DNA of 63,879 nucleotides, filler included, from Diploschistes diacapsis (Eukaryota): assembly GCA_023645945.1 (NCBI GenBank). It is 5 parts of 5 records of this genome, joined end to end, with 100 filler letters (N's around TTAATTAATTAA, not from the genome) between each part and the next. Parts side by side here need not be neighbours in the genome. Positions count along the whole stretch, not along the records: positions 16,402 to 24,497 come from JALAIB010001199.1; 4 more parts are not named here. One strand, written 5' to 3'. A program made the position numbers and the translations under genes. Each line of letters begins with the position of its first letter. Position 1 is the first letter of the stretch. Below, in pieces: positions 5,240 through 55,936 of the stretch. A model generated the notes under the pieces. That model searched no databases. It was not told the origin of the DNA and worked only from the letters and a program-made list of their open reading frames with translations.

Positions 5240-5479
5240 TTTGAAGGCTAGAACCGTGATTGAGAGTTTGGCACTGCAAAATACTGAAACTTTTATACAG
5301 ACAGGTGTAGCATCGTGGTCGAGGGGGGTGCAACTGAAGGAGAGGAGCTCAAGGAGGTGATGTTAAGATTAGCGAGGGAAAAACAGCATCATTCCCAGTG
5401 AGACCACTTGCGGATGCTTTGTAGTACTAGCTCCATTAGGTATTTAAGAGTGGGACGGAATCGGAGCCGGTCACCAGTC

Positions 5480-5489
5480 ATCGTACGAG
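5480..5489. promoter_or_regulatory. Candidate SREBP (SrbA-type) sterol response element
   Basis: ATCGTACGAG, one mismatch from the palindromic ATCGTACGAT type site, about 240 bp upstream of the ERG9 ATG. Confidence 0.35.
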
Positions 5490-6060
5490 AGATTGAAGGG
5501 CTCCCGAGCTTTTCGTGAAAATAATCTGGGGGGCGCTCCAGCCTCCAAATGAGCTTGGCCGGGGAGCTTCGTTGCCAAGAACCCAAGGACCCTAAAATCT
5601 GGGCAAACCCACGTGCGGGAACTTGTCTTGTTGAGATGAGGAAAATAACGTGAAGAAGGTCAGCTAGCTGTGTCAAGTGTCAAGTTTCTAGTGTACACTT
5701 GTAGGTCAAAGAAACTGGCTATCGGTTATAGTTTTTCCGCTTCGCTAAAGCACTTCCCCATCGGGCCTTTTTATCCTTTATCAACACTAACCACTTAGGT
5801 GCTAAATAGAATAACTGCGCTAAGTTCTGCATTCCCCCGTCTAACATGTGTTCAGCCCCACGTCGTTGATAAATTATATTTTCAGCCCAATGATCGGGGG
5901 CGATCTGCTTAGCATATACGACGTTGTCATTCCAAAGACTAGGGTACACTTAGGCAAGGCAGATCGCTGAGTCTCCTGGAGTACTTACATACCTTCTGGT
6001 TTATTTTCTCCGATTTGGCCTTCGCACCTTCCTGGCCTCTCCGTATCAGCAACGACCACC

Positions 6061-7752
6061 ATGGTTGTTGACACAACCTACTACGACGCTCTAGGCGTCA
6101 AGCCTACCGCCTCGGAGCTGGAAATCAAGAAGGCGTACAGAAAGCTCGCCATCACGACCCATCCCGACAAGAACCCAAACGATCCCACAGCACATGATCG
6201 CTTCCAAGCAATCGGTGAAGCTTATCAAGTCCTAAGCGATAAAGGTCTCCGCTCTGCGTATGATCAGTATGGGAAGGAAAAAGCGGTACCGGGAGGCGGC
6301 TTCGAAGATCCCGCCGAGTTCTTTACCATGATCTTCGGCGGAGATGCATTTGAAGACTGGATCGGCAAGATCTCTCTCATGACGGATCTGTCAAAGACCA
6401 TGGACATCACCATGCGGCAGATGGAAGAGGAGGAGGCGCTCGAAAATGCGGAGGCTAAGATGGCTGCGCACAATATTAAAGACAAGCAAGACACCGAGCA
6501 AGCTACACAGCATACCGCTGGCGCTCCACATACCGAAGCCACAGGGGCAGAGCATATGCCGCCGCCTCCAACGCCAGCGCTCAACATTCCAGACGCTGAA
6601 GAACATATTCCGGGACAGCCTGTGCCTCCCACACCCCGCGTTGTGCCGCCCACGCCCGGCATCATTCCACCAACACCAGGCATGCCGGTCACCCCGGGTG
6701 TGCCACCTTCGGCAGGAGCAGGCGGAGCAGAGCTTAAACCACCTCCGCGAGACACGACGGAGTCTCCGGTTGGCGTTGAAACTACAAGCTCAGGAACTTC
6801 GACACCGAAGCGAGTTTGGGGTCAGCAAGCGTTGATGGACAAGTCGGAAGAGGATGCGCGAATGGAGACAGCCGGTCTAACACCGGAGGAGAAAGAGCTG
6901 CGGAAGAAGGAAAAGAAGAAGGGACTCACAAAGGAGCAACGAGAGGAACTTGCCGCATACGAGGCTGAAAGGAAGCGCATAAGGGACGAGAGGGTGAACA
7001 CGTTGACCAAGAAACTCGTAGATCGACTCAGCGTCTGGACCGAAACGGACAAGGGCGCAGATGTTACAAAGGCCTTTGAAGAGAAGATGAAGCACGAGGT
7101 CGAGAGCCTGAAGATGGAGTCCTTTGGCTTAGAAATCCTGCACGCTATCGGCGCGACCTATCTTTCGAAAGCGTCATCCTTCCTGAAGTCTCAAAAGTTC
7201 TTAGGCATCTCAGGCTTCTTTTCTCGGCTAAAGGACAAGGGAACGCTGGTAAAAGAGACTTGGAGCACATTTTCTACTGCCATTGATGCTCAGATGACCA
7301 TGGAAGAGATGTCGAAATTGGAAGAAAAAGGGGGCGAAGACTGGACGGACGAAAAGAAGGCCGAGTACGAGCGAAGAGTTACCGGCAAGATCCTCGCGGC
7401 AGCTTGGAAGGGCAGCCGATTCGAAATCACCGGTGTGCTACGCGAAGTTTGTGACAGGATACTGAATGATAAGCATGTCAAGGTAGAGAAGCGCATTGAG
7501 CGGGCGCATGCTCTAGTTATCATCGGCAACGTCTTCCACCAAGTAAGGTCTCCTTCTGTGTTTCATGAACGTCATGCTAATTTGAAGTAGGCCAAGCGCA
7601 ACCCAGAGGAAGAAGGCGATTACATGGCTTTTGAGCAATTAATGGCAGATGCCGCCCTGAAGAAGGAGAAGGACAAGGACGTCAAGAAAGACAAGAAGCA
7701 GCATAGCTCGAAAGACAAGCCAGAGAAGGCGGACGCCAAAGTTATGCCATGA
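6061..7752 (+). CDS. DJP1: DnaJ protein with J domain and DnaJ-X domain (Djp1/Caj1 family), 2 exons
   Basis: J domain with HPD motif, FEDPAEFF…[20 protein letters not shown]-domain. Intron 7543-7590 (GTAAGG…GCTAAT…TAG); last exon ends …ADAKVMP*. Confidence 0.92.
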
Positions 7753-8101
7753 GCGGTTTTGTGGGGCGAAGATAGTTTCGGCTTGGATCTCCTCGTAGCT
7801 TATGTCTGATATCTACATAGGAGACTCTCCGCATATGAAATGTTCTAATGACTCAGGATATCAGGAATAGACGCGTGCTTGATTTGTGCAATAGTGGCAC
7901 ACGTTGCCCCATGTTCCCTTAATACCCGCTTGCTTCCCTGCTGCTACATAAGATGCCACGAAGGTGCAATATACCCAATACCACTCCTCCAACTTCTAGA
8001 GCTGAACCTGCATGCACGTCAAAGCGCCTCCATCTTGCCACAACTATGCTTTGATCAACGTCCGATCCCTATACCTCCCGCTGCTGCCCGCCCCGTTCCC
8101 C

Positions 8102-8201
8102 NNNNNNNNNNNNNNNNNNNNNNNNNNNNNNNNNNNNNNNNNNNNTTAATTAATTAANNNNNNNNNNNNNNNNNNNNNNNNNNNNNNNNNNNNNNNNNNN
8201 N
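8102..8201. other. Artificial contig spacer
   Basis: N-run with central TTAATTAATTAA (stop codons in all six frames). Confidence 0.97.
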
Positions 8202-8600
8202 CCGTTAAGTTTTATTTTTAATATTATTCCTGATTGGTCTAATTAGGACTCTAAAAGGTTTTACTGAACTAAGCTAAATCTCGGTAAGTTCAGATAACTG
8301 AACTCCCCGGGTTCTTCCATTGAACCTTTTGGATCCAGACGAGCTCACAGCCATGCCTTCCGTCTGCCTGCTCAACAGAACTAATTATTACTAATTATAC
8401 TAGCTTGAAATGTGCCTATAAAAGGCCTCTCGCCTCCCATTGTTCAAAGTCATTACCTTTATCATCATTAATACTAGTACTAAAAAACAGTCAGCTAAAT
8501 AGTCTAGGCAGGCTAGGAATTATTTCTTAGTTAGGATTAGCTCAGAATATATCTTAGCCTCTTCTCATTTTAATTAGAAAACTTCCACTACTTCCAACGC
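8202..8600. mobile_element. AT-rich degenerate repeat, possibly an LTR relic
   Basis: TpA/CTA/TAG-rich sequence at a contig end, TATAAAAGG box near 8417, no CpG in 8433-8597, no ORF. Confidence 0.4.
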
Positions 8601-8783
8601 CCGGAGATAGAGCAGGTTCGTTTCGATTTGTCGAGTAATCTTTAGTATAAAAAAAGTACACTAACAGGTTTGCTACGTTAGGCGGTTGGGACAGTCAAAT
8701 GCATTGCAGAATCGATCACATACTTTAAGAGTCTATCATTCATGTAAAATAGTTTTCTATTTTTTACAAAGCCTCGTTTGTTC

Positions 8784-9871
8784 ATGGCCACCAACGAAAG
8801 CTCCAGATATGCTATCCATGAAGCTGCAAGAGAAGGCAAGAGTATTATTACACACACAAAAATCACATCATCTTGTGCGGAGCTGCTAACTATTTGAAGC
8901 AATAGTTGTGGAAAGTTTTCTAAATGTAATATTATCTTGTAGGATCTCTAACTTGCCATGATTCTGTCTCACCTGCCCTAAGGCAAATATACGTCTTGCA
9001 TGGCGACGAGACGATGACAATAGGCTACCAATCCATTGGGCCGTTGCCTACAATCATACGGATGTAGTGGAGTTGCTGATGACGACTCCTGACTTTGATT
9101 TGAACGTGCAGGTGCGCCAGTCTACCCACCCTCCTGTCAAAGAATGTTGATTGATGTACATTTAGGACGGATCTGGCTGGACTCCCCTCATGATCGCTGC
9201 AAGCCTGCTAGAGACTCCACTTGTAGATATTCTGCTCCGGAGGGATGTCGATGTTGGAGTAAAAAGTAAAGTACAATTTGGTCTTTACACATCTGAAGCT
9301 TGAGAGCTAACCCTGCGAGTAGATTTCAATGGACAAGTTAGCAAGATGATTCCCCTGTGATGACCCTACAGCTCGCTAGAAAGGACAGACTGCGTTGCAC
9401 TTATGCGCTTCCAAAAACAACATCGAGGTTGCCCAGAGGCTGATAGAGCACAAAGCAACCACTCGTGTTAAAGACCAGCGCGGACAGCTTCCCTTACATC
9501 GCGCTGCAGCAATCGGATCTGTACCTTTGATTAAGATCCTCCTAGAAAATAAGAGCCCCTTGAATGCGACTGATGCTGATGGTCAAACCGCACTACATCA
9601 CGGTAGAGTCTGCGGGTATACCGAGCTGACGACTCTGCTGACGCTATTCACAGCAATCTCGGAAGGGCATGGGGACGCTGCACTGTTCTTGCTCAAAGAA
9701 GGAGCAGAGACGGACAAGCGCGATGTTAATAAGCACCTCGCTATCGAACTGGCACCAGATACTAAGGTTTTCCTGATCAGCAATCTTACATGGAATGCGT
9801 AATGCTAATTGTTGCAGATCCGTAATTTCGTGTTGCAAAGCGCAGAGCGAGAAGGCATACCTCTAGACTAG
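8784..9871 (+). CDS. NAS6: Ankyrin-repeat 26S proteasome assembly chaperone (gankyrin/PSMD10), 8 exons
   Basis: Spliced product MATNESSRYAIHEAAREGK…DDDNRLPIHWAVAYNH…DGSGWTPLMIAAS…NGQTALHLCASKNN…GQLPLHRAAAIGS…ALHHAISEGHGDAAL…EREGIPLD*. Donors at 8842, 8926, 9112, 9266, 9337, 9603, 9767. Confidence 0.9.
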
Positions 9872-9916
9872 CAATGTCATCCCACAACCATTGTGGATGC
9901 CAGGTTGAGTGCATTG

Positions 9917-12529
9917 TCATTTAACAGTGTCCTCTAACGTTGAACGATAGATTTCTTTCATGTCTAATATGTCAGCCTTCAGCTCTTCGACTAGCTCACT
10001 CTTTTCTCCAAGCATTTCCAGAGTAGTTTGTAAGCGAATATTGAGTTCCTGGATCTCCGCTCCCATCTCCACAAACTTCGTCTCTGTGGCACGCTTTCCT
10101 TCAATTTCGTCTATTAATGCCATTGCCTGAGTGCGCGCTTCATCCCTCTGGGATGATAGGCGATCAATTTCATCCCTCGAGGCCGCTTTCTCGCTTTCAA
10201 GCCTACGCACAGCGGCACTCATACGTTCCACGAGCTGCACGGAAGGTCCTGCGGCTGCGGTTGAAGTAGAACGCATGTCGTTGATGGTTCGGTCGGGCGT
10301 CTCAGGGGTTGACACACTATAGAGCAATTCCTCATTATTTTCCGAGATAATGGGAGGGGGCACCGGAAAACCTTCTTTGCGTTGGGCCTGTGGAATGGAT
10401 GCCGACGAATTTTGCCGCTGCGATAGAAAGTTCTGAGAAGGCTGCGTCGGCGTTCGCCATGAAATAGGGCGTTCCGAGTATGTGACAGTGGGGCTGCTGA
10501 CGCCATAACTAGGATTATCTGTAAAGCGCAAACTCTGAGCAGTGGGACCTTCCAAAGTAGCAGACCTTGGCACAGGAGAGTCTCTCTCAGATGTGTTACC
10601 ACGGCGCTCCTTATCTCCACGCTCACCAAGAACTTTAAAGCTCTCCTTAATTTGCTTCAGCTCACTTCGGACTTCGTAAAGCTGTTCCTCAGCCGTTGCC
10701 AAAGAAGCTTCGAGCGACAGAACATTTTCTCTCTCCTTTGTGCAGGCCTCTTCCAGTCCATGCGCCTTGCACAACTCTCGCTGAAGCTGCATCTCCAGCT
10801 CTCGGCATTTGTTACTGCCCTCGCGCGCTTTGCGGCGCAGATCTGACTCCTTCTTGTACAATTCACTCTGCTCCTTCTCGAAACCTGCAATCTTGGCCAG
10901 CAGGGAATTCTCAATACCCCTCCAGTTCTCGCTGGCCACAACATAGGAGCTTTGAAGGGTCTCAATTTGACGGGTGAGCTTCGCTTGAATATCAGCACTA
11001 CCCTTGGTGGACCTTTCCTCTGAGTGAGCTCTATACGCCTCAAGCCTGCGTTCCAAAACCTTAGGGCCACATAGGTAAGCATCACTCCAATATATTGTCA
11101 ACAACAAGAAACAGTTTACCTGTAATTCAGCCTTCAAATCTGTTTCATTTGCTTTGCTTAGAACTCTTTCCCGATATCGGTCCGTTTCTATATCACGCAA
11201 TTGCGACTTGTGACTATCGTTAAGCCGCTCCCTGTCCAATTCTGCGGTCGATAACTCTTCGCGTAATTTTGCCACAGTTGCCTGCTCCAATTCTAATCGA
11301 CATTTCCACTTCTCAACTTCTTCCACAACGCCCACGCAATTACTCTGTGTTATTTTTTGCTGTGGGTCGGAAACGTGGGAGTCTTTGGCTTCCAACTCGG
11401 CGGAAACAAAGTTAAGCTTTGACCGGGTGGGTGCTGGTGATTGGGCGCGCTGCGCCTCTGCTTGTTGGGAGGATTCAGAGCTCTTTAGCTTCTCCTTGAG
11501 AACTCTAACTTCATTGTGTAGGTCCACAACGCCACGTACCGCATGAGATCTAAACTTTTCCTCTTCGGCAGATCTTGCCCGCAGCTTCTTGATTGCATTC
11601 AAGAGTTTCAATTCTTTCTGTGACATTCTCATACCTTCTTCTATGAGAAGTGCGATGTGCTCATCCCTTTCAGCCAGTTGTCCTTCAAACTCGTTGGTTC
11701 CTGCTGCCGCTTTTGTATGTTTTGCTTGAGCAGAGGCTTGACCAGTCAAAATTTGTAGCTTTTTCTGTAGTGAGTAGATCTGTTCAAGAAGCTGATTCGC
11801 TTCACTCCGTCTTGCCCCTTCACCGACCTCAAGGTTGCCGCGCAGTCGCTGAACAAGTTCTCGATACTCGTCTAGGCCAGTTGGATCAGATGTAGTCGGA
11901 GCATCGTACGTGACCTCGGTTGCCAAACCGATCGAGAGCTCAGCGAGGCTTGACTCCACTCTTGGTTTGAAGTTCGAGTTTCGGAACGCGAATTCTGTAG
12001 AGATCCCATGGTTGCTAATATTATATGGGTCACTGTCACTGGACTCGACGGATATAGCAGTGATACAATGAGCATCTCCTTGCAGAGCACTGTACTTTAC
12101 CTCTTCCTCCTCGATGTACCGCTTATTATCAGAACTCGTGCGTTGCGACGTCGAGTTTCCGAAGGGAGTTCCTGTTCGGGGAGTGCTAACATTGGAATTG
12201 CTCGCTGACCCGGCTGGAATACGCCCGCTCATAGCCTTGGACAATCTATCTTGCAGGCGTTCTGTACTCTTGCTAGGAGGCCCTTTGCCTTTCGCATCTG
12301 ATATCTCATTATCAGCTGAACGACTGACTTGATACCTGAACCTGCCTTGTGCAAGCTGTCGATCACGCGACTCATCTTTACCGTATCCTGCCGTCGGTTC
12401 AGCAAACCTCTTCGAAGATGAGGAGGGTTGCTCGTCTTCTGCTAAGATGGTATCCAACCGAGATTCTACACCAGCAACAGCTTGCTGGAAGAACGAACCC
12501 CATTTTGAAGCAGGCTTGTTGTAGGCCAT
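9917..12529 (-). CDS. SGM1: TMF1/Sgm1-like coiled-coil golgin
   Basis: N-terminal WGSFFQQAVAGVESRLDTIL, long coiled coils, C-terminal TMF domain (GPSVQLVERMSAAVRRLESE…TTLEMLGEKSELVEELKADI.DMKEIYR). Probable in-frame introns 12345-12298 and 11119-11060. Confidence 0.85.
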   Translation of the reverse strand: MAYNKPASKWGSFFQQAVAGVESRLDTILAEDEQPSSSSKRFAEPTAGYGKDESRDRQLAQGRFRYQVSRSADNEISDAKGKGPPSKSTERLQDRLSKAMSGRIPAGSASNSNVSTPRTGTPFGNSTSQRTSSDNKRYIEEEEVKYSALQGDAHCITAISVESSDSDPYNISNHGISTEFAFRNSNFKPRVESSLAELSIGLATEVTYDAPTTSDPTGLDEYRELVQRLRGNLEVGEGARRSEANQLLEQIYSLQKKLQILTGQASAQAKHTKAAAGTNEFEGQLAERDEHIALLIEEGMRMSQKELKLLNAIKKLRARSAEEEKFRSHAVRGVVDLHNEVRVLKEKLKSSESSQQAEAQRAQSPAPTRSKLNFVSAELEAKDSHVSDPQQKITQSNCVGVVEEVEKWKCRLELEQATVAKLREELSTAELDRERLNDSHKSQLRDIETDRYRERVLSKANETDLKAELQVNCFLLLTIYWSDAYLCGPKVLERRLEAYRAHSEERSTKGSADIQAKLTRQIETLQSSYVVASENWRGIENSLLAKIAGFEKEQSELYKKESDLRRKAREGSNKCRELEMQLQRELCKAHGLEEACTKERENVLSLEASLATAEEQLYEVRSELKQIKESFKVLGERGDKERRGNTSERDSPVPRSATLEGPTAQSLRFTDNPSYGVSSPTVTYSERPISWRTPTQPSQNFLSQRQNSSASIPQAQRKEGFPVPPPIISENNEELLYSVSTPETPDRTINDMRSTSTAAAGPSVQLVERMSAAVRRLESEKAASRDEIDRLSSQRDEARTQAMALIDEIEGKRATETKFVEMGAEIQELNIRLQTTLEMLGEKSELVEELKADILDMKEIYRSTLEDTVK

Positions 12530-12740
12530 TTTCGAGGTTGACACACATGGGGAGAACTAAGTGGACTGATCGGGAGAATGTTTGATTCTTCCATCATACA
12601 TGAAGAAAGACATAAGATCAAACGTTCAAGCTATTTACAAAGGTATATGCGGAAGATCCGATAAACATACAACCCACGAGTAACATAATAAACGAGTCTT
12701 AGTATCCCCCAAGTGGTGCGTAAGCCCCGTAATTTGTGAG

Positions 12741-13179
12741 TAGAGTGTTGCCCCTAGTAACCGAGCGGACCCTAATAACCGATCATCCATAAGCGCTTTT
12801 TACATCTAAAATGCCCTCCCCTTTTTTATTCAATATAGGCTCCATATATATTTTTTATTAATTTAAACCTAGATATTCTCGATAATGGAAAATATTTCTA
12901 TCGAAACGAAAATTGAATCTTTTTCGTTATCGTTTCGTGAAATCGCTCGGCGTAACGGCGGCCTTTTTTTCTTTTTTTCGATAAGCTTAATGACCGTTCT
13001 AAAAGGTTTGTTGATAGGTTTGTTGATTATCAATCGTAGCAGTTTATAACGTGTTTCACCACATAACGGAACACGCCACTAAGCGGAACACAATCCCTGC
13101 ATTTTCGTAAAATATATTTCTTAATATTTTTATCTTTCGTACGATAATATTCTTTTATTATAAATATTCAAGAAGGCCG
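12741..13179. mobile_element. Degenerate pogo/Fot1-like DNA transposon fragments with two TIR-like ends
   Basis: 12741-12782 starts at TA and holds an internal direct repeat (CCCTAGTAACCGA / CCCTAATAACCGA); it matches the reverse complement of 55897-55936. A second end at 13047 (TA|ACGTGTTTCAC, direct repeat CGGAACAC) matches 62655-62667. Flanks are AT-rich. Confidence 0.65.
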
Positions 13180-13350
13180 TGTAACAGCGGGGGTAGTGCC
13201 TAATAGGTAGCGCTATCCCACTGAGCCAAAAGACTGAACACAATGCTTTCAGTAACCCCGAAGCACTTGTTTCCCTATTGCACTATATGTAGGTACGCAG
13301 CTGTGGCAGCAGGGGGACCTGTACCCCGGTGCGCACACTCGGGTGTTACA
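13180..13350. mobile_element. Short solo-LTR-like element (171 bp)
   Basis: Starts TGTAACA and ends TGTTACA (perfect 7-bp inverted termini, TG…CA), GC-balanced inside AT-rich DNA. No target-site duplication visible. Confidence 0.55.
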
Positions 13351-14526
13351 ACTATAACTACTAGTAGGATGTTTAACTATTGTTAGTAGGACTAGTGATG
13401 TTTCCTGAAGGTTTTAGAACCTTCAGGGTCACACTAATGACTAATTAATGAGACAGACTAACTCATTTAGATTAATAATCAGACATTAATTAGCATTAAA
13501 ACAAAAGAACTAAACTAAAAATCGTTATTACCATTTGGACATACAGCAGCCTATGAAATCTAACAAAAGGAATGAATGATAATTCGTAGCTAATCTGGAA
13601 CAAAATCTACTTATATAAAGTAGATGCCAAGCGCCATCGTCAGCGAGGTCGGCAACACCTGCAACCCAACGACTACTACCACATTAACCGTTAATCTATT
13701 ATATTGATCGTTCCAAACATGGGGATCTAAGGTCAAAGTTTTTACTTTAGCCTCTCGCTTGAGTCACGTTAGTTTTTCAATCAGCATCCAGACCTTCTGC
13801 CCCAATGGAGTATGCTTTGCCCGGGATGGCTGGCGACCGTTGTATAGAACTGTTTGCGCGCGAGCCAAATACGGGGTCATCGTGAATCGTCAAGTACGAG
13901 GTAGCATCAAGGCTTTATTTATCGAGCCTATCGACGAGTTGTGGTTGATCCTGACTGCTGACCTGCAACAAGTGTCTTGCATGGATCCCCCAACAAAGTC
14001 CCATAGTACCTCTCCTCTTCCTCTTCCTCTTCCACTTCCTCATCCCCCTCCGCAATTCCACGCTGCAGCTAGGCTAGTGCGTATTACCGGCCCCATGCAC
14101 CGTCTAGGAAAGTGCGTGGATCCCTTGCCAGCGACTCGTTGGTGTGTTGTTCAGAGTTCAGATAAGCTGCCACCCGTCAAAAGGGTCGTGTGATTTCTTT
14201 CCTCCACCAAGCAGGGACCGACACGCGCTCACTCGCTCACTCAATCCGACTTACTGGGGCTGAGAACACTGAGCTGAGAGATACGAGTTTGCTTGTTCTG
14301 GTTGGATTGAAAGATGTCTTTTTAACCTTAATATCTGATCCACCCTTCATCCATCCTCTTCGGCGCCAGTGTTGCGGTATCGATCTACAGGATATCTTGT
14401 GAGCTACTTACATTAAGTTTCACACTCTTTTTTCTTGTAACGGAGCGTTTCTACCAGCTTTGCGCTCCTCCTCTCTCCGCGCTCTCTCTTGTTGCTGTCA
14501 ACAATTGCCTGTGTCTCGTCATCACA

Positions 14527-16271
14527 ATGGCCGAGCCGGAGCCTACCCACAATAACACTATGGAGCCCGCCTCTGAAAAGGAGATCACCACCACTTCCGC
14601 TCCCGAAGTCCACAACGGCTCATCCACCCACGATGCCGAGCGCGGAGGCGTCACAGCTCACCTAATGGGCTGGCAGTACAAGCCACTTAGGTTCGGTCCC
14701 TGTAACCTGGGCTGGTATGCATCGCCCTCCTTTCAGCTCGTCATGGTCTCTTTCGTCTGTTTCCTCTGCCCTGGTATGTTCAATGCCATCAACGGTATCG
14801 GAGGTGGAGGGCAGGTTGACGCCACCACCTCCAACCAGGCCAACATCGCGCTCTACTGCTTATTCTGTGTCGTCGGTTTCGTTGCCGGATCCATTGTCAA
14901 CCGTATCGGCGTCAAGATCACCCTCAGTTTTGGAGGAATCGGTTACTGCATCTATGTTGCGAGTTTCCTCTGCTACAACCACACCGCCAACCGCGGCTTC
15001 ACGGTTTTCGCTGGCGCATTGCTAGGGCTCTGCGCCGCATTGCTGTGGACCGCACAAGGCGCGATTATGATGAGCTACCCCATGGAGGCGGACAAGGGCA
15101 AGTACATTGCTACCTTCTGGATCATTTTCAACCTTGGTGGTGTCATTGGAAGTCTGGTAGGGCCACACTATTACATGATCATCAGAAGCATACTGATCTT
15201 CCCAGATCCCTCTCGGCCAGAACATCAACAACGCCGGCAGCGGTAGCGTTACCGACGGTACATACGCCGGCTTTATCGTTCTCATGTTCCTCGGTGCCGT
15301 AGTGGCAACTTTACAGACAAATGCCGGCAACATCATCAGGAAAGACGGGTCAAGAGTGATCATAATGAAAAACCCATCATGGCGGAGCGAACTATCCGGG
15401 CTTCTCGCAGTCATGAAGACTGACTGGTACATTCTGCTGCTGTTCCCGATGTTTTTCGCTAGCAATTTCTTCTACACTTACCAGTTCCAGGACGTCAACC
15501 TGGCCAAGTTCACCCTCAGGACCCGGTCGCTGAACTCGGTTCTGTACTGGGCCGGTCAGATGGTCGGAGCCGGCATTTTCGGGACTGCGCTCGACATCCA
15601 GGCCGTAGGTCGTTCAACAAGGGCCAAAGCGGCTCTCATCGCACTATTCTGCCTTACGATGAGTATGTGGGGTTGGGAGAACGTACGGGATTGAACCAAG
15701 CTAACGATATACAGTCATTTGGGGCGGCGGATACGCCTTCCAAGCCACCTTCGACCGCACGACCAACCCGGGATCGAAGGAAACTCCTGCCTTCCGCCTC
15801 CTCGATTGGACCAGCCCCGGCTACGGCGGGCCCGTGGTCCTCTACATGTTCTACGGCTTCTTCGACGGTAAGCACATCCTCTACCCACCAGACCATCTAC
15901 CGTCCCCCTCCACCCCCGAATAGCACAAACTAACCCTTTTCTTTGCTACAGCCGCCTGGCAAACCTGCGTGTACTGGTTCATGGGCTCTCTGAGCAACAA
16001 CTCGCGCAAGCTGGCCAACTTCGCCGGCTTCTACAAGTCCATCCAGTCCGCCGGCGCCGTCATCGCGCCCGCCATCGACCTGGCGCTGGTGCCGTACATG
16101 AACGAGCTAGCGGCCAACTGGGGCCTGTTGGCGGGCAGTCTGCTGATTGCGGCGCCGATCATCTTCACGCGCATCCAGGAGAGCACGCCGCTGGAGGATG
16201 ATCTGGCATTCTCGGACGAGACGGTGGCGGATGTGGTGCCGGTGGGGACGGATGTTTCGGAGAAGTATTGA
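14527..16271 (+). CDS. UNC-93-like (DUF895) MFS membrane transporter, 4 exons
   Basis: VCFLCPGMFNAINGIGGGG, LLWTAQGAIMMSYP, FWIIFNLGGVIG, LLFPMFFASNFFYTYQF, YWFMGSLSN, GFYKSIQSAG. Introns 15157-15205, 15663-15714, 15868-15951. Confidence 0.9.
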
Positions 16272-16301
16272 GGATCGAGGAGGAGGAGACGGGGGAATTA
16301 C

Positions 16302-16401
16302 NNNNNNNNNNNNNNNNNNNNNNNNNNNNNNNNNNNNNNNNNNNNTTAATTAATTAANNNNNNNNNNNNNNNNNNNNNNNNNNNNNNNNNNNNNNNNNNN
16401 N
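16302..16401. other. Artificial contig spacer
   Basis: N-run with central TTAATTAATTAA. Confidence 0.97.
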
Positions 16402-16910
16402 GTTGGGGGGAACGAGGGGGGGAAATGGGACAGGTGAGAGGAAGTAGAGAGTTTTGATCTTAATTATGGTTTAGGTAGACATGGTTTCACTTCGGATGCG
16501 AGGAGAGATGGATGGTGGCTTGATCATGGATTGGCCCCGCTACCGGAGACTTTATTGTGGCTGCTAAAGATACTGCGTAGGATGCACCAAAGACACATCG
16601 CCATTGCATCCAATATCCGGCGTTATTGATACTATCCATCGTGTTCTCTGCTTTGACGTTGTCGAGATAGGGTAATATCTTATATGCTGAATTGGTTTCC
16701 CCTTCCGCACAATCTTCAATGCAGGGCTCTCGGCCTGGTAGCACATCGCCAAGCCTTGTTCCCTTCTTAATAAACCGGCCGTTCGCATGTTTGGAGTCGC
16801 CGCACATAATACAGAAGTGCCCCATTATAGGAGTTTCCGGGCGAGCAAGTTCATCCTTCCCAGACGCCAGACCGGCCGCACGCTGTAGGCAATGTCTCAA
16901 GTCACCAATC

Positions 16911-17438
16911 CTAGAATCCTCGTCGACCCCGTCCTCCTCCACGAGGACCACCCCTGCCTCTTCCGCCCCGCCCGCGCGGTCCACCACGGCCACCGCGATC
17001 CGTAGGCTCCTTCCTTGCCTTGTTCTTCGGTTTTGGCGCGTCGTCAATCAGTAAGCGATCGAGAGGCAGCGAATCGGGCAAAATGTAGTACCGGATCATC
17101 GAACCGCGGATGTTCAGGGACTCTAGGGCTATCGGATCGCGTCCTTTGAGTGTCATCTTGACTGCTCGGAGCGCGGTGTTCATTTGAGGGGAGACGGATG
17201 CTATTGTGCCGTGGACGATTGTGCCTGGTTCTGTGAGTATACTTCTGGGCGCTTTGGTGATGGAAGGAGGAACGGTCCATACCATTCTTTAGCTCGATCG
17301 TGACCGTCTCGTTGGTGCATTTCATAAGAAATCTAGGAGGGAGTTAGCCAGGATTGTTGGCTCGGGCCTTGCGAGAAGAGGTTTCAGCATTTTGCTCGCT
17401 GTGCATGGTGAGGGAACGACTTACCTGACGAGCTTCAT
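16911..17438 (-). CDS. SMD1: Small nuclear ribonucleoprotein Sm D1, 3 exons
   Basis: Spliced [29 protein letters not shown]…[13 protein letters not shown]…LLIDD plus an RG/RGG tail. Introns 17424-17333 and 17282-17225. Confidence 0.97.
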
Positions 17439-19089
17439 CCTGGTGACTGAATGCCTCAAATTAGGGAGTGCGCTTAAGATGATACTCGGTAATAGCGATC
17501 TTCAATAGGGTCTTGTCCAAGAGCTTGCGCGCGATGATCTGAATTTCGAGTTACCAAGATCAAAAAATCGAAGCTCAGATAGGTTGGTGCGATAAATAGG
17601 GCTGAAGTCAGGAAAGTGTTTTTCCGCTTAATTGGGACTACTAAGTTATCATTTCCTACCTAGAAGCCTTAAAAGCAGAATAAGTCATCTTTCTACGATT
17701 TGTCAGAGATCAGATACTATAAGCGATGCCTTAGTCTCAGTGAACTACCGTACTCACTGGGGAGAATAACCCTTGGACAAACCAAACAGGCTTAAAGAAA
17801 CTCGGGCAAGAAACTTGTTGACCAAGAAGCGAACCTACACTTTTCCCTACGCGGTAAGCAAAGATTGAAAGCAAATGATAGCTTATATCTGCCAGGCAGC
17901 TCATGCCTGGGACCTTCAATCAGAGAGCAAGACCTGACAGCAGAGGACTTGCTAACATAGTAACCAGATTCAGATGAGCGGATGGGACAGAAGCTGAAAG
18001 CAGCACCTGGCCAAAGCCTTGAAGTTGGAAGTCCGCTCAATCACTTAAGGGTGCTGCTCACTTGTTACGATATGATGGTTGAAGTGTTACGTGCCTGCCA
18101 ACGTTATATGATTGCTATAAGACTTGTACTTGCACATCTCCAAGAGGGTATAGTTTAAGTTTAAGGTGCAGCTGACTTTGCTACTGATATCTTTACTTTG
18201 CGATCAATTATTGAGGCGTCCACGGCTTCGCTATTCTGTGTTTAACATCGTTCTAATGATTATAAATTCATTGGTCTGTTTTCCCTTCTTACTTGAATTC
18301 TTCGGTACATGATGTCGTTCCAATTCCTTCTGCAAGGGATATACTCTCACCCCAGAATTGCTACTTTACGATGCTTATTTCCTGATATACATATCTATGG
18401 TTCCTGTTTTCTCTGGGGATGGCTTTTGTATATTTGAGTCGCCCAGGTGAGCTTTCTGCCAGGGTCAAGATATTGAAATGCTCATAAATACTCGAAGTCT
18501 TCGACCCACTCCCTCTGTACTTTTCCCCAGACGAATATCAACGCTTCCTTCACGAACATTCATTCCTCCAGAGCTAGTGTGTCCATGTGTGCCTCCATAT
18601 TTGTACTCTCTTTTACGGCGCAAAAATAACAAACTCCAAAACGTCCTCTCGGTTATGCACCATGTCCTATGAGGTAGAAAACGTTGAGCAGCCAAATGAT
18701 GAGCCACTACCGTATTCTAACGTGACTGGTTTCTACGGGAGCCGTTCACCTTCGACATTATGTCTGCAGTGGCTGAGTAGAGGCATAGGGGCTGCGCGAT
18801 GACTGCTCTACAATGGTTAAATAGATATCAGCAAGTAGAATACTGACAGATTATGACAAGAATAGCTAAATACATGAACATGAGTCGAGGATAGTAGTAT
18901 ACGCTATAGACTGTGTGGCACGATGGGCTCACGTCTTTTTCTTTTCTTCAACTAGAAAACTACAGATAAGCCAAGTTCAGCTCCATCCCCTACCGCTCAT
19001 AGCCCTTTCTCCTTGATTCTTGTCTTTTAATCCTGTGTTAATTCTCCTATCGTATATTCCTTGAAGCGGTATCATAGACGTCAGTCAAT

Positions 19090-19938
19090 CATGACTCGAT
19101 GTCGAAGCAACACGTCCTCACCCCAGACCCCCAACTATCCTTTCAACCCTCTGACCCAACCTTCCGACCTACGTGCAAGGCTCTTTGCCCAAGAAATTCG
19201 GCAATGGGACAAACACAGCGAAATACCCGGGCCCAGACCGTCCAGCAAGTGGTGGCTCAGCATCTTCCAACCGTCCAATAGACACGGCCGCAAGACCAAA
19301 TTTACCGTGTCTAAGAGCGTTGGACTGCCCACTGGCAGTGCCAACACCGATGCGAATGCAAATGCCCATATATTCAAGTTCTTTACGACCGGCCGGCAAA
19401 CTTCCATCCATACCGGTAGATACTGGGACGAATCTCCGCCCCGGCGCACCATGGGGATATCAAGATAATACGATTAGCAGCAGCTTCGAGTAAGCTGCCA
19501 ACGGGTGCATCAGGTCCTTGGCCACCGTTGCCACCTTCGTGGAAAGAAGGCTTGGAACAAGCGCAAGAATATATGAAGCGGGAAAGGCAGCTGCGACTCC
19601 AGGAGGCATCCGCTCGTCTTGGAGCGTCACGGGGCAGCACGGAGAAATATAAACCGCGCGTGATTGAAGAAGCGCAAGCGCGGAGACTGAACTGCTGGGA
19701 AACGTAGGAAAAGCAGAAGAGAGAAAGGTTGGAGAAGAGGGTCATAGCAAGTTGTCCCCAGAGCTTTTCTTTCCGGTAGAAGCTCTGCTTCGTGGGACGA
19801 GAGAAACGACAATCAATCGCATGCCGTATTAATGAGACCAGTTCGATTTGTGGCCTGCCATGTGTGGGAATCCTTGCCGAAGCGTGCCTTGGTGGGATTG
19901 GGCGACAGCCGCTGGTCATTGAGCTTGGATATACTTAG
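19090..19938 (+). pseudogene. Possible decayed orphan gene
   Basis: Frame 19420-19938 reads as a charged helical protein (GLEQAQEYMKRERQLRLQEASARL…EKQKRERLEKRVIASCP) interrupted by two in-frame TAG codons (19705, 19777). No family recognised. Confidence 0.25.
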
Positions 19939-20088
19939 TAGCTCGCCGGGAAATAATGCATGCAAAGGCACTTCAAAGGCGTGACAAGGATGAACACAAC
20001 ATTCTTTCGTATAAAACATGCCGTCCATCCCATGATAACTCTCGAAGAGAACGCTAGAGGACGCTAGAGGACGCTACCCATACAGTAA

Positions 20089-21494
20089 TTAATGGTGATC
20101 GGAGCTGTTCCCGAGGTGGTTGACTATTTGCATTAGTGATACATTCTTGTTAGTTCGTCTCAGTGCCTCTTTAACATCTTCGTAGGCTCTATCCAAGTCG
20201 GCTTCCCAGATAAACTTCATCTTCTCTTGAAGCGTGTTCGCCATAATAGGCACGCATTCCTCAACGTCTTTGTCAATCAGCTCTGGCAATTGCATGTCGT
20301 ACAGCGGCCCAGACTTCCTCGACGTCGCTTGCACCTTTTGAGCACGGGGAAGCCGGAGGTTTTGATACAGATCCGCGCACGCGTCCAAGGTTGGCAGAAT
20401 GTCGAGACTCTGTTTGCCAACATATTCGCCGAGCACGCGGCCGAGTATCCATCCGTCTTCGACTGCTTGACCTGCTCCCGCGCCGGCGTGCGGCAACACT
20501 TTGCACGCGTTCGTCAATGGGCGGAGAGATAGAACTATTGAAAGCACGGATACTCACTGGCATGCGCTGCATCGCCCAGCAGAATGACCTTGCCACCCAT
20601 GTAGCTCCACCTATCCAACGGCTCTCGGTCGTTGATGCGCCATTTGCTCGGCTGGTTCGGCATTAGACTAATGAGCCTCTGTACCGTCGGTTCAAACAGC
20701 CTGTAGTCCGCCTCGACTTCCGCCCTATCGCATGTCGAAGTCCACGACTCGGCGACCATCTCGGCGTCCTTCCCGGACGCGTTGGCAAAGGCAACCACGT
20801 TGAGCGTCCGATTGCATGAAATGGGGTAGGTGAGGAAATGCTTGTGCTTCCCGCACCACATGATGGAGTACGTCCCGAAGGGCCACCACCCCTCGAGCTC
20901 GGCCGTGGGGATTGTCGCGCGATAGGCGATCTGGCCCGAGTAGACGGGCCTGTCGTCTACGAATTGGCTACGGACGCTGGAGTGAATGCCGTCGCAAGCG
21001 AGCACAGCGTTTGCCGGCACGCTAGTCGAATCGGCAAAGTAAACCGTTACGTGACGATCGCCGTTATCCTCGACGCGGGAAAATTTCTTCTTCGTGTGCA
21101 GCTTCGCCGCTTTGCGCTCCTCGATCGCGTGCCGGAAGAGCTCCAGCAAGTCTGTCCTGGCACATGATGCTTGTCTGACGGCTTTCGTGTCATCGGCAGG
21201 TATGCTAATAATAGATTCGCCGTTATCGAAACGCCGGAAGTCGATCCAGACGCCGGAGCGGAAGCCCGATATGGCATTGAGCTTGTCCCCCAGGCCGATG
21301 TTGTGAACCATGCGTGCCGAGTTGATCGCGAGGCCAACGCCCGCGCCCACCTCCTTGAACTCGGAGGCCTGCTCGTAGACGTCGATGTCGACCGGCAGGT
21401 CCTTGCAGTTGTGATGGATGGCCAGGGCTGCGAACAGCCCTCCGATGCCGCCGCCGATGATGGCGACTCGAAAACGCTCGCTTGCTGCTGCCAT
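20089..21494 (-). CDS. FAD-dependent monooxygenase, salicylate hydroxylase-like, 2 exons
   Basis: VAIIGGGIGGL Rossmann motif, VYEQA…EVGAG, ACDGIHS (DG motif), LLGDAAHAMLPHAGAGAGQAVEDG (GD motif) after removing intron 20557-20499. Confidence 0.92.
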
Positions 21495-21769
21495 TGGTTG
21501 AAGTGTTTTCGGCGCAAAAATCTTTCTGTACCAGATCTCTTGGTGGCGAGCCTTGATTTTATCCTCGGGGCTGGTGAGATGCGACCAGCCAGTGGGGGGT
21601 TGCGCGTAGGCCAATATCGATTTCTTTCGAGGAACAAGAACGGTGACTCGGGTCAATGTTGTACCTGCTGCCGAAATTCCGTAATCGGGCTGCTAATAAG
21701 GGGGGTAATCTACATATATAGCCAGGGCAACTCCTCAGGTCCATAGCCATCTATTCTCCTACGCGCACA

Positions 21770-22520
21770 GAGTTACTCCCCTTAACATATGCATCTCCAT
21801 AAAAAAAAAGGCAGTAATAGCTCTCGGTGGCACTTCAAAGCCCTTTTTTATTTGAATTTTATATCTCCCTCGCTGCCTTCTCCCTCCTCCTTCAAGCCCT
21901 TCTAACCCTCGTCGTCGTTTCGGCGGTTATTTACACCGCCGCGCCGTGGCAAGCCGTTGTGTTTTTCAAACTGCCGTTCAATACCGCTCTTCCTCCCACC
22001 GTCCTTGCTCTTCTGCCCAGCCTTCCATTCCCCACTCTTATCTTTTCGTATTCAGTTAATCAGAATATTCCCTTTTTTTCCCCTTCCAACGGCAACGACG
22101 TAGACGCAGCGCTGCCGGTTATAGAACCAAGGCTAGAGACGAGGCGCGCACGGTAAGCGACGATGGCGAAAAAGTGCCAGGGTCAGGGCAGAGAGAAGAG
22201 AGAAGGCGGCGACGGAGATGTGCAAAGATATTAGCAGCAGAAGAAAAACAAAGGGGAGAGGAGACAGGCAATAGCGATGGAAACGGGCGAGGGAGGAGAA
22301 AAAAGAAGGGGCGAGACAAAAAGAAGGCGTGTCGCCGCAAGCCTTTCTGGAAAAAATTAAGAATTGGGAAGGGCTTAAAAAGCAGACGTATTAGACTCTG
22401 AGAATGAGTTTTAAAATGTACGAAGAGAAATAAAATTTTGGATTGTAAGGCTTGGTGTGAAATACAAAAAAAAGATTTACGAATTTATACGTTATCTCAT
22501 ATAAGCGTGTACGCAGTCTA
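21770..22520. mobile_element. Degenerate repeat/transposon relic
   Basis: 21908-21990 aligns by eye with 24119-24195 (TCGTCG…ATTTAC…CGCCG…GGCAAGCC…GCCGTT.A.TACCGC). Skewed composition, no credible ORF. Confidence 0.5.
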
Positions 22521-23799
22521 ATTCACAGCTTTTGGGAAGCAGGTGGTGCTCCTGAACCATCCGCTGCGTCGGTTCTCCCATCTACCTACTGCTGTATCGT
22601 GATGTCGAAAACGTCTTCTTGTTGTTGCTGGATAGTCTGTGGACCATCTTCTTAGGCATGGCCTCGGAAAAGGTGTCGAGCTTCGTCTGATCCTGGACGA
22701 GTGGTTTCATGGGTGCGGCCGGGCGTCTAGCTCTGGCCTCGCGAGTTCGGATATCTTCGGCGTCTACGACGTATGTGGTGAGGACAGCATCTTCGTTGCC
22801 TCCTACGATGTGGTTTTAAGATTGGGGGGAGTGTCGACCGCTGCGTTAGTTAGTCGCAGCGCCACTATAATCAACGCTTCCATCGCCGTCGGTAGATATA
22901 TGCCAGATAATTCTTGTGTCGGTTTTGGCTCCTGTTGAATTCTCCATAAATATAACTCGCTGAGAGAATGTCCTCTTGCTCCACTAATTGTAGCGGTTTG
23001 GAAGGATCGGGTGGCGGGGGACAATGCCGGAACTACCACTCTTTAGGACCTTGAAACTGAAAATGTGTTGAAAATCTCGTACTTTGATTGAAGAAAAGAA
23101 TATGGGTGCAGATCATTGGATGCTCAAGAGTCGAAAGAGTAAATGACTTTCTCACGTAGTAATGATTGTAGTGGGATGGAGTAAGTGACTCGATGAAGAA
23201 ATCTCGAAACATGTGCATTCTTTTTACGTACAGAGGCGATTGTAGTATTGAACCTCACAACTCGACGGGGAGGACGAACTCAGAGATGGCCATAGCAAAA
23301 AATTTGGAGACGGTGGAATGAAATGAGTGTGGAAGGATTGAGAAGTGCATCACATATTCTAGCCAGCATTACTTATGGAAACATGAAGGCTAGTATCAGA
23401 AGAAGGTATCATCAACTTGAGGCAGCGGTCCCAAAAAAACTAATACAAGAGAAGGTCAATCGGTATCTTGGGCTTATATCTGCATTTCATATAATGAGCT
23501 GATTAAGGGAAGGTTTGTATTGCGTATGGCAATTTCTTGCGTAGGGAAGCGTAACGATGTTAAAACAGGGCCATAGGGGGTTGTTCAGGAGGCAGATGGG
23601 TTTTGTCACTAAGATATGCCAAAACCTATCATGTTCTTTCTCCCAACACAAACTGCCTGAATCGGTTATCCTAAATCAAGAACTACCCTACCACATCGAC
23701 TTCTGTGCATATAAGATGGCGAGGCGATTCAGGAGCACCACCTGCTCCCCGCCCCGGTCATATATAGTGTGTCTGTTAAGCTGTTTAGTTCATATCTAG

Positions 23800-24497
23800 T
23801 TCCTATAGTAATTAATATATATTATATATACGAGTCATACTGCGTCATAAGCGTGTCATCTCCGATATATTTATATAAATTATAAAAAGTTGATTTTAAA
23901 GTAAACGCGGATTAAATCCGCCTAAATAATTATATAGGAGGCCAAATCTCTATATAGAAATGCCGTAAAAGATTAAAACTAATTAAATTAAGGCTTTAAA
24001 GCCCTTTACGCCCCAATATGACCCCTAAAAAACAGTTATTACACCTTTTATCAAGTTTTTATACCCCTTTCGCCGTTTCTTCTTCCTTTTCTTCCTTTTT
24101 TTCCAAAAATCTTTTACTCTTGTCGTCGCTTTAGAAGGGATTTACGTCGCCGCGGCAAGCCTTCTTACCTTTTAAAACGCCGTTTAGTACCGCCTTTTTT
24201 TTATTTTTCGCCCCCGTTTTCGATTAATTAACCTCTAAACTTCTCGAAAAGATAAAAACTTATTTTATTATTATTTCGAAAATTTATTTTATTATCCTTA
24301 CCGACGGCGAGATCTTCTTTATTTTTTTTAAAATCCACGAACGCGTGAAAAATTAAGTTTTTATTAACGATTATTACGTCGTCGTAAGACGTAAGTTTTA
24401 ACGATTCGTTTATAAATATTACGATAAATAAACGTTTAATATACGTAAATTAAACGAATTTTAAAAGATACGTAAAGCCACGTATGTTTATTAAAAA
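23800..24497. mobile_element. Heavily mutated AT-rich transposon relic
   Basis: Very AT-rich, TpA-rich, surviving C almost only in CpG; related to 21770-22520; runs into a contig end. Confidence 0.65.
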
Positions 24498-24597
24498 NNN
24501 NNNNNNNNNNNNNNNNNNNNNNNNNNNNNNNNNNNNNNNNNTTAATTAATTAANNNNNNNNNNNNNNNNNNNNNNNNNNNNNNNNNNNNNNNNNNNN
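24498..24597. other. Artificial contig spacer
   Basis: N-run with central TTAATTAATTAA. Confidence 0.97.
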
Positions 24598-41088: not shown

Positions 41089-42011
41089 TTAACCTGTGGA
41101 ACGAGAAAGCAAGAGGCTCGAGTTCTCCACCACGAAAATGGTTACACCTGTTCGCTGTACTAGGTATACAGCGACGGTCAAGTTCTTTGGCATGCACGGA
41201 TACCTCGGGCCGGTGGGCGGCTATTATGTTGTCAATCTAGCGAAGCGACGGGAGTCTTGCGGTTTGGATCGTTACTGGAAAAGCACGGGCGGCTGCTCTG
41301 TTTCTGATCCTGTCTCGGATAAATGATGGGCTGCTAGGACGCAGCGGGGCTACCTACGTGTAGCTGGCGAGTATGTGTACTAATACGTGTACGATGACTC
41401 GAATACTCTGGTGATAGACTGTCGACACCATCTGTCCTGTCAGTATTTCTTCCCCGTTAGATTGTATCCTGCTGGCCTTGCGCTGTGACCCTTAGCTATC
41501 CACTGCAATGCACGCTCGTCCTCTACCCTTTACGCCTCCCACGAGAAACGTTCATCCATGTTCTTTCCCTCCCGCGACAACTAGGATCATTTCGAGGTTT
41601 GATGTTCCGAAGACAGCACCTTTCCAGAAACCCAGGAGGACCCGACTCAAAACAATTGTCCCATCTCCTTTAAACCTCGGTACTGGACCATGGCGAACCG
41701 AAATCCTTCTCAGGCTGCAGACCCGTTACCTCCAGTAGACCAACGATTCGATTCGAGTCGGTGATTTTTATTGAATCCCACAGCCGTACATTCCACGGCC
41801 AGCACCGTTGCTTCATTCGCCTACTCTATGCTGCAGACGCGTCGACTCAGAACCGCCGGAACCAATTTCATTACACTTCGGGGGGCCGATGGTTACTGTT
41901 GCGCTGAAGCTCCTCTTGGGTGGTCGGTCCATAGACTTATCCTTCCTTGTCATCTCCGGCGCTGTTACCTCGCCTGTTCGTTTGTATATCTTAGCACTTA
42001 TCAACCGCCTT

Positions 42012-42032
42012 TCTCTCTCACTCACTCACTCA

Positions 42033-42106
<74 letters not shown>
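42012..42106. repeat. (CT)n microsatellite preceded by (CACT)n
   Basis: Directly visible, about 70 nt of near-perfect CT. Confidence 0.95.
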
Positions 42107-42113
<7 letters not shown>

Positions 42114-42368
42114 CCTTCCTATTCCTCCCCTCCAACCCCCTTTCTTCTCTCCTGGAACCCAGCGGAAAGCGAAACAGAACAGAAATGAACACCGCAACAC
42201 CAAAAAAAGGGAAAATGATAACGAAAGTGGTCGCTGCTTAGAGGCGTCGATTAGGATAGGAAATATCTCTTCCAACCCCAAACCCTCCTTTTGCCCAGTT
42301 TCCCCCTCTTTGCCGTTTCCCACAAGGATCGGCACACCAAGAGTAGCTGGCACGGGGACTGATGCTTG

Positions 42369-55689: not shown

Positions 55690-55789
55690 NNNNNNNNNNN
55701 NNNNNNNNNNNNNNNNNNNNNNNNNNNNNNNNNTTAATTAATTAANNNNNNNNNNNNNNNNNNNNNNNNNNNNNNNNNNNNNNNNNNNN
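55690..55789. other. Artificial contig spacer
   Basis: N-run with central TTAATTAATTAA. Confidence 0.97.
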
Positions 55790-55936
55790 GGGTCAGATAT
55801 AGCTATTATTCGATTAATAGGGCTTCAAATCAATCACTTTTAGAAATATTTTGCTTTAAATATTTACTATTATAGTTTTGCTCTTGTATCACGTATTCGG
55901 TTATTAGGGTCTGTTCGGGTACTAGGGTCACGACTA
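55790..55936. mobile_element. End of a pogo/Fot1-like DNA transposon relic
   Basis: TCGGTTATTAGGGTCTGTTCGGGTACTAGGGTCACGAC|TA, reverse-complement homologue of 12741-12782, preceded by AT-rich sequence. Confidence 0.6.

Follow-up and report, generated by a model that had tools for sequence, protein, structure and literature searches.

CpG retention in AT-rich repeat relics of Diploschistes diacapsis is reproduced by simulated repeat-induced point mutation at CpA and CpT

A 63,879-base stretch of the Diploschistes diacapsis genome (GCA_023645945.1; hereafter the window) carries short AT-rich patches in which much of the remaining C and G lies in CpG. An earlier note on this sequence described them as repeats that repeat-induced point mutation (RIP) had eroded with CpG spared, and proposed an atypical enzyme specificity or a shielding of CpG. 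Our analysis supports the best-fitting explanation, to which we assign a probability of about 0.8, that the patches result from ordinary, near-saturation RIP directed at CpH (H being A, C or T), which hardly targets CpG and needs no special CpG protection. The evidence comes mainly from patch A (24046–24497), at the end of contig JALAIB010001199.1, and patch B (62687–63090).

The window concatenates five separate contigs, 1–8101, 8202–16301, 16402–24497, 24598–55689 and 55790–63879 (8101, 8100, 8096, 31,092 and 8090 bases), joined by identical artificial linkers of 100 nt (N44-TTAATTAATTAA-N44) at 8102–8201, 16302–16401, 24498–24597 and 55690–55789. Distances and neighbourhoods across the linkers therefore have no meaning.

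Retention of CpG in the patches

Patch A is one copy, rich in AT and degraded by RIP, of a non-coding repeat that is dispersed in the genome, recognized by its composition and by its many copies in public contigs. The feature had been placed at 24301–24497; it is present there, and its true extent is wider, beginning at 24046. Position 24497 is the contig end, followed directly by the linker, and thus marks an assembly boundary rather than a biological edge. The most eroded part, 24311–24497, forms the core of the finding: its GC content is 0.25 and it holds 16 CpG (8.6 per 100 nt, observed/expected ratio (o/e) 5.67), with CpA+TpG reduced to 4, CpT+ApG to 7 and CpC+GpG to 2. Recounting 24361–24497 (137 nt; GC 0.24, CpG o/e 6.6) gave the same figures as before, with 13 of 15 cytosines in CpG and the other two in one CpA and one CpC, none being in CpT. 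The count for 62941–63080 (140 nt) was likewise reproduced, at 10 of 14 cytosines (CpG o/e 5.6).

These sub-windows are extremes; the whole patches are less extreme but clear. Within 24100–24497 of patch A (GC 0.30), the 69 cytosines comprise 33 in CpG, 4 in CpA, 16 in CpT and 16 in CpC, and the 51 guanines comprise 33 in CpG, 3 in TpG, 11 in ApG and 4 in GpG. Patch B, on the plus strand and internal to the fifth contig, is an AT-rich, CpG-retaining repeat copy with a GC content of 0.28, 32 CpG (7.9 per 100 nt, o/e 4.07) and CpA+TpG of 9. Its segment 62700–63090 contains 64 cytosines (31 in CpG, 7 in CpA, 19 in CpT, 6 in CpC) and 43 guanines (31 in CpG, 1 in TpG, 5 in ApG, 6 in GpG). The GC-normal background of the window has 24% of its cytosines in CpG. 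When mononucleotide composition was shuffled, the observed CpG count was reached in 0 of 20,000 trials for each of six stretches tested; an example is 13 CpG observed against 1.98 ± 1.24 expected.

The same look had been reported to recur at 12880–13150 and 49920–50200. It is present at both sites in weaker form: 21 of 48 cytosines are in CpG at the first (o/e 2.6; 10 CpA and 10 TpG remain) and 15 of 32 at the second (o/e 3.5; 7 CpA and 10 TpG remain). The first site falls in patch C (12825–13170), two short AT-rich stretches, of which 12825–13000 has a GC content of 0.31 and 29 cytosines (13 in CpG, 2 in CpA, 10 in CpT, 4 in CpC). The second overlaps patch D (49598–49969, plus strand), a moderately AT-rich paralogue of patch B that does not keep CpG strongly (GC 0.36, 17 CpG, o/e 1.42, CpA+TpG 31). 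Alignment against shuffles revealed no significant similarity among patches A, C and D in any pairing, nor between A and B or C and B. By eye, a motif around AACGTGTTTCAC / AATGTGTTTGAC is common to 13047–13063, 49720–49740 and 62654–62672, which adjoin patches C, D and B, and hints that these three belong to one rearranged repeat family.

AT-richness by itself does not produce this composition, because other AT-rich 200-nt windows (8401–8600, 13401–13600 and 53101–53300) are poor in CpG, with o/e values of 0.30–0.43. Across the patches CpA+TpG has almost gone and CpT and CpC have partly gone, and CpG density, at 7.9–8.3 per 100 nt, is not below the 6.2 ± 1.8 of GC-normal sequence. Decay driven by CpG methylation would deplete CpG in repeats; o/e is 4–5.7 in the patches and 0.94 over the whole window.

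Duplication and mutation spectrum

The patches belong to duplicated DNA. Transition-tolerant local alignment, scored against shuffles, identified two paralogue pairs in the window (24046–24310 with 21846–22095, and 62687–63090 with 49598–49969). We also mapped Logan contigs of three public runs (X1, X2 and X3) on 16402–24497 at a likeness of at least 80%, and many contigs pile up on 23692–24497 in all three.

The paralogue of patch A, copy 1 (21846–22095, plus strand), lies on the same contig 2.2 kb upstream of the alignable part of the patch (24046–24310, plus strand), and one X1 contig links 21943 to 24215. The pair scored 170.5 against 85 ± 11 for shuffles of local composition (maximum 124.5). 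The upstream flanks do not align significantly, and the core of patch A, 24311–24497, has no significant paralogue inside the window (against 22096–22700 it scored 53.5, with shuffles at 44 ± 5.5 and a maximum of 64.5). Copy 1 is GC-normal (0.49) and CT-rich, with 16 CpG (6.4 per 100 nt, o/e 1.36) and CpA+TpG of 21. Its counterpart in patch A has 19 CpG (7.2 per 100 nt) and CpA+TpG of only 4. An ancestor already strongly enriched in CpG, the circumstance that the earlier note had named as fatal to its reading, is thus not what the GC-normal paralogue displays.

Direct comparison of the two copies gives identity at 147 of 243 columns. Read from copy 1 to patch A, there are 37 C>T, 17 T>C, 8 G>A and 5 A>G changes and 29 transversions, so that C>T and G>A (45) stand against 22 in the reverse direction. 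Cytosines of copy 1 are read as T in patch A at 5 of 12 CpA, 13 of 25 CpT, 16 of 34 CpC and 3 of 15 CpG sites. Summed over the two strands, changes affect 5 of 29 positions in CpG and 40 of 88 outside it (Fisher p = 0.008). The flanks of the retained CpG point in the same direction for CpC: CCG/CGG makes up 13 of 128 flanks, as opposed to a background of 0.242 (p = 4.7e-5), and by this depletion CpC seems to be a RIP target as well. Mutation of both CpA and CpT is indicated by the GC content of 0.24–0.30 in the patches, lower than targeting of CpA alone can reach, by the 13 of 25 CpT sites converted to TpT and by the copy differences described below. A Neurospora-type order, in which CpG is mutated above CpC, is seen neither in this pair (CpC to TpC 16/34, CpG to TpG 3/15) nor in the flanks, where CCG/CGG is depleted and CpG retained, albeit with small numbers.

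The public contigs add a second view of the same repeat. The segment 16402–23749 is single-copy and is covered by one exact X1 contig of depth 100.9 with 0 differences, which ends at 23749 inside a high-copy repeat. All 197 changed places in X1 therefore fall within the repeat; they comprise 189 transitions and 8 transversions. Summed depth over patch A reaches 230–422 in X3, where single-copy sequence has about 4.5, and among the sites listed a variant letter at one patch A site is found in up to 32 X3 contigs. Also among listed sites, 12 variable positions of patch A are all transitions, 6 of them in CpT/ApG, 4 in CpC/GpG, 1 in CpA and 1 in CpG. Seven of these have C or G in the window and none of the seven is in CpG, though 66 of the 120 C+G of patch A (55%) are.

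RIP indices agree with this picture. With the thresholds given in PMC2621366 and PMC3897900 (TpA/ApT of at least 0.89; (CpA+TpG)/(ApC+GpT) of at most 1.03), 24101–24500 yields 1.21–1.43 and 0.11–0.21 and 62801–63100 yields 1.05–1.26 and 0.11–0.18, both on the RIP side; TpA/ApT at 62701–62900 is 0.87, just below the threshold. A stringent scan in 200-nt windows flagged 15 regions, several of them normal-GC stretches inside genes. Because indices over 200 nt are too noisy, we did not use them to map RIP. Paralogues, copy number, the 189:8 ratio and the indices together bear out the description of the patches as degraded repeats with a RIP signature, and the density, the flank depletion and the contrast of 5/29 with 40/88 bear out the relative sparing of CpG at the expense of C in CpA, CpT and CpC.

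Patch A is bordered by a very high-copy short repeat of normal GC (23723–23835), defined by contig depth and by loose ends at 23723, 23759–23762 and 23813–23835. Summed depth in the bin 23692–23961 is 1770 (X1), 2172 (X2) and 1528 (X3), compared with single-copy values of 100.9, about 100 and about 4.5. The element has a partial inverted copy at 22534–22556 (inverted repeat I3, 96% complementary over 23 nt). RIP seems not to have touched it, perhaps owing to its short length. Contigs of JGI metagenomes contained no locus matching an exact 24-mer of this repeat, nor one matching a purine/pyrimidine-degenerate pattern of 24368–24410 that keeps the CpGs.

Depth of exact-match contigs over 23980–24418 is 5–12.8 in X1 (against 100.9) and 17 in X2 (against about 100), and is about the single-copy depth in X3. 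The low values in X1 and X2 might reflect AT-dropout in both libraries, a minor variant, or sequences joined in assembly through the high-copy repeat. Over the single-copy segment 16402–23700, contigs of X2 and X3 show about 3–6% divergence from the window in the listed pieces, along with many small indels; the sequences in these two runs come from related strains or species and not from the genome of the window. Coverage of X2 has gaps at 16942–17751.

Could the patches be something other than RIP products, namely spacer or regulatory DNA that is natively AT-rich, DNA of organellar or foreign origin, or a chimera made in assembly? We regard this as very improbable. Patch A does lie at the end of its contig, preceded by a very high-copy repeat, the X1 contigs that match it exactly are shallow, the patches are short (about 400 nt), and a Pfam scan of 10 open reading frames (ORFs) of 82–121 aa in and around the patches returned 0 families at E ≤ 0.01 and no transposon protein domain. 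Against such an origin, the patches are multi-copy and their X1 copies differ almost exclusively by transitions, CpA/TpG is nearly absent whereas other AT-rich stretches of the window are low in CpG, and patch B lies within its contig. C and G are depleted alike, that is, C has been lost on both strands, by which a one-strand (bisulfite-like) conversion artefact is rejected.

Simulated RIP and competing explanations

We simulated RIP on 130 GC-normal 400-nt segments of the window, run down to a GC content of 0.28. Mutation of CpA and CpT with CpG untouched left 6.2 CpG per 100 nt and 44% of C+G in CpG, with 3–12 CpA+TpG, 23–33 CpT+ApG and about 26 CpC+GpG per 400 nt. The observed patches have 7.9–8.3 CpG per 100 nt, 55–58% of C+G in CpG, and 7–8, 25–27 and 12–20 of the three dinucleotide classes, respectively. 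A 64:18:13:5 spectrum, which we take to be a Neurospora-like ratio, gave 2.9 CpG per 100 nt, 21% of C+G in CpG, and 14.3, 50.1 and 22.3. Context-free mutation gave 1.7 CpG per 100 nt, 12%, and 41.1, 41.5 and 14.4. The patches are thus reproduced by CpA+CpT, CpG-sparing RIP and not by the Neurospora-like spectrum. Targeting of CpA alone has a GC floor of 0.385 for this genome's sequence. At saturation, Cp[A/T] targeting arrives at GC 0.163 with 76% of C+G in CpG, and Cp[A/T/C] targeting at GC 0.125 with 99%.

These results remove the need for the atypical enzyme specificity or CpG shielding that had been proposed, since a plain CpA+CpT model that leaves CpG alone suffices. Only in CpG does each strand have its C before a G; the CpG-only look is therefore the expected end state of a CpH-directed spectrum. 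As the arithmetical outcome of any two-strand, CpH-directed C-to-T process, it requires neither shielding nor a new enzyme. By analogy with known RIP, short dispersed non-coding repeat copies would be recognized as duplicated DNA before meiosis, and C would then be converted to T on both strands of the copies. The contexts in this genome rank with CpA at the top, CpT and CpC next and CpG well below. Near-saturating CpH-directed mutation would turn every other C and G into T and A, leaving G+C stable only in CpG. Homologues of RID, DIM-2 or both are the likely agents.

Several observations weigh against this explanation. The context tally of copy differences comprises 12 sites, taken from 40 of 579 variant rows. 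CpG is not untouched, as the family has G and the window A at 24337, within a CpG. The alignment of patch A with copy 1 is old and noisy, given its 147 identical columns and 29 transversions, and blocks containing CpG may anchor it. Patches B and D, which lie on different contigs, align with a score of 121 (shuffles 69.6 ± 9, maximum 95), with transitions dominating only in about the first 100 aligned columns; in the first 120 columns, the credible part, CpG is changed at 7 of 26 and non-CpG at 21 of 51 positions, and over the whole alignment at 32 of 94 and 55 of 141, with significance in neither case. Patch D holds only 4.6 CpG per 100 nt. X1 contigs exact to patch A have a depth of 5–13, compared with 100.9 for the adjoining single-copy contig, and the junction near 23750 may have been made in assembly, through the high-copy repeat. 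Finally, CpG density of the patches is above the genome mean and only 14.6% of GC-normal segments reach 7.9 per 100 nt, so some ancestral CpG richness is possible. The change at 24337 and the 7 of 26 in the B/D pair establish that CpG sparing is relative, not absolute. That CpG is not a preferred target is supported by the density of 7.9–8.3 against 6.2 and by the patch A/copy 1 counts; in the B/D pair the difference lacks significance.

Ancestral richness, taken further, would mean that ordinary Neurospora-like RIP acted on unusually GC- and CpG-rich progenitors and that the CpG share was inherited rather than spared. The patch density in the upper 15% of GC-normal segments, the choice of the most striking sub-windows in the earlier note and the o/e of copy 1, slightly above 1, lean that way. 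The quantities do not: the presumed Neurospora-like ratio of 64:18:13:5 lowers CpG from 6.2 to 2.9 per 100 nt at GC 0.28, so the ancestor would need about 17 CpG per 100 nt, whereas the maximum among the 130 normal segments is 11.5. The less-mutated paralogue, at 6.4, does not exceed the relic, at 7.2. We therefore give this scenario very little weight. The patches differ here from Neurospora crassa RIP, for which the same assumed ratio removes about half of CpG by GC 0.28; in the patches CpG is undiminished and CpC ranks above CpG.

A different possibility is that CpG is actively protected, for example by DNMT5-type maintenance methylation or by a bound protein that blocks deamination, or that the RIP enzyme is strictly non-CG. 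Methylated CpG decays faster by spontaneous deamination. Shielding by methylation fits poorly with the survival of CpG between paralogues that differ by 12% transversions, despite that expected faster decay, and the genome at large shows no CpG decay (o/e 0.94). CpG sites did change in the B/D pair, and the evidence amounts to about 800 nt in two patches. Favourable to protection or strict specificity are the unreduced CpG density of the patches (7.9–8.6 per 100 nt, 6.2 in normal sequence), the lack of CpG among the seven listed variable sites with C or G in the window, the seemingly greater mutation of CpC than of CpG, which reverses the Neurospora order quoted in PMC5496416, and a CpG-exempt GC floor of 0.125–0.163, within the 10–20% GC reported for RIPped transposable elements (TEs) of Cladonia in PMC12542154. 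The data here do not separate protection from an intrinsically low preference, and we consider active protection or a strictly non-CG enzyme unlikely. On our preferred explanation, ordinary CpH-directed RIP, two traits may be peculiar to this lineage, namely that CpC ranks above CpG and that CpG is kept so completely; about 800 bases underlie each.

Host genome, known RIP systems and implications

The large ORFs of the window are ordinary fungal genes, encoding a squalene/phytoene synthase, a DnaJ protein, a thiolase, a glycogen phosphorylase, MMM1 and a TMF-like protein. Among named relatives, the MMM1 ORF matches Lecanoromycetes best (Stictis, Trapelia, Xylographa and Lasallia; 54–63% identity), and the host is a lecanoromycete-like lichen fungus. 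For the fifth contig, 91% of sampled words are present in one public run labelled lichen metagenome. Copy 1 lies upstream of a FAD-monooxygenase-like ORF (20535–21656, minus strand). No DNA methyltransferase was found among the 14 large ORFs of the window that were scanned.

Three further sequence features were recorded. A long CT/CTCA microsatellite at 42009–42138 contains (CT)n over about 100 nt. A GGTGCTGGN repeat with a 9-nt period and 7 copies, at 50250–50357, immediately follows AT-rich patch D and might code for a Gly/Ala-rich repeat. Positions 12730–12782 and 55897–55949, on two different contigs, form an inverted match of 53 nt with 77% complementarity; each arm adjoins an AT-rich stretch, and the pair may be another short dispersed repeat.

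RIP at CpA and CpT has been published for Botrytis, Sclerotinia and Magnaporthe, by authors who hold that CpG is not a RIP target (PMC4352252, Amselem et al. 2015; PMC5381539, Derbyshire et al. 2017). The same authors assign RID-type RIP to CpA and CpT and attribute CpG changes to a different, methylation-based process. The patches resemble RIP in Botrytis cinerea, Sclerotinia sclerotiorum and Magnaporthe oryzae in the conversion of C to T at CpA and CpT of repeats, with CpG not targeted, in the dominance of transitions and in the AT-rich products. They differ in that CpC also seems to be mutated (the 13 of 128 CCG/CGG flanks), in the lichen-forming, lecanoromycete-like host, and in the scale of the evidence, about 800 nt rather than genome-wide TE families.

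For Neurospora, PMC5496416 quotes the order CpA>CpT>CpG>CpC, and for T. reesei about equal mutation of CpA and CpG. Since CpG is third of four in that order, low CpG mutation alone needs no atypical specificity. CpT changes are described as prominent in N. crassa Tad1 and S. nodorum (RIPCAL, PMC2621366) and in the control genomes of one survey (PMC7882544), and DIM-2 is described as methylating mainly non-CG sites, CpT being preferred (PMC13297926). The patches share with N. crassa RIP the targeting of duplicated DNA, CpA as the strongest and CpT as the second context, high TpA/ApT and low (CpA+TpG)/(ApC+GpT).

CpG-directed C-to-T decay, by contrast, is reported for Microbotryum (TpCpG), Tuber melanosporum and rusts, and RIP at CpG and CpA for A. 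nidulans and T. reesei (PMC4352252, PMC2621366, PMC5496416). Repeats gather C-to-T transitions in these systems as they do here; those systems deplete CpG, whereas here it remains.

Among lichen fungi, Cladonia rangiformis is reported to have RID and DIM-2 homologues, heavy RIP and TE-derived DNA at 10–20% GC (PMC12542154), and RIP is also described in Xanthoria, as LRARs (bioRxiv 10.1101/2025.11.25.690456), and in Endocarpon pusillum (PMC3897900). These RIP compartments are like the patches in belonging to the same or a related host group, in forming sharp AT-rich islands next to normal-GC genes and in breaking assemblies at RIPped DNA. They differ in size (regions of at least 4 kb, against a few hundred bases here) and in that the reports give GC content and RIP indices only. 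The term CpG has 0 occurrences in the main texts of these three reports and of a lichen Helitron paper (PMC13535494), and our searches, which covered main texts, found no paper that describes in which contexts RIP acts in a lichen fungus.

The pattern is thus of a known kind, CpA/CpT-type RIP that spares CpG, not a new mechanism, with a modest lineage-specific nuance. It shows that a lichen-forming fungus carries RIP relics and offers a first, small-sample look at the RIP context spectrum of such a fungus, in which CpA leads, CpT and CpC follow and CpG is hit far less. RIP patches are where assemblies of such genomes break, and binning by GC content may lose them. Standard RIP indices, built on CpA/TpA only, overlook the CpT/CpC component.

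A broader proposition, that Lecanoromycete RIP is strictly CpH-directed (CpA, CpT and CpC) with CpG exempt, so that the GC content of RIPped DNA has a floor near double the CpG density of the ancestor, is tentative and in our judgement rather doubtful. If it were true, the floor for this genome's sequence would be 12.5–16% GC by simulation, which would explain the 10–20% GC plateau of RIPped TEs in Cladonia. The specificity of RID/DIM-2, or the protection of CpG, would then be unlike the Neurospora model. RIP compartments would be unusually CpG-dense AT-rich DNA that CpG-specific methylation or binding factors could read. [quoted passage not shown]

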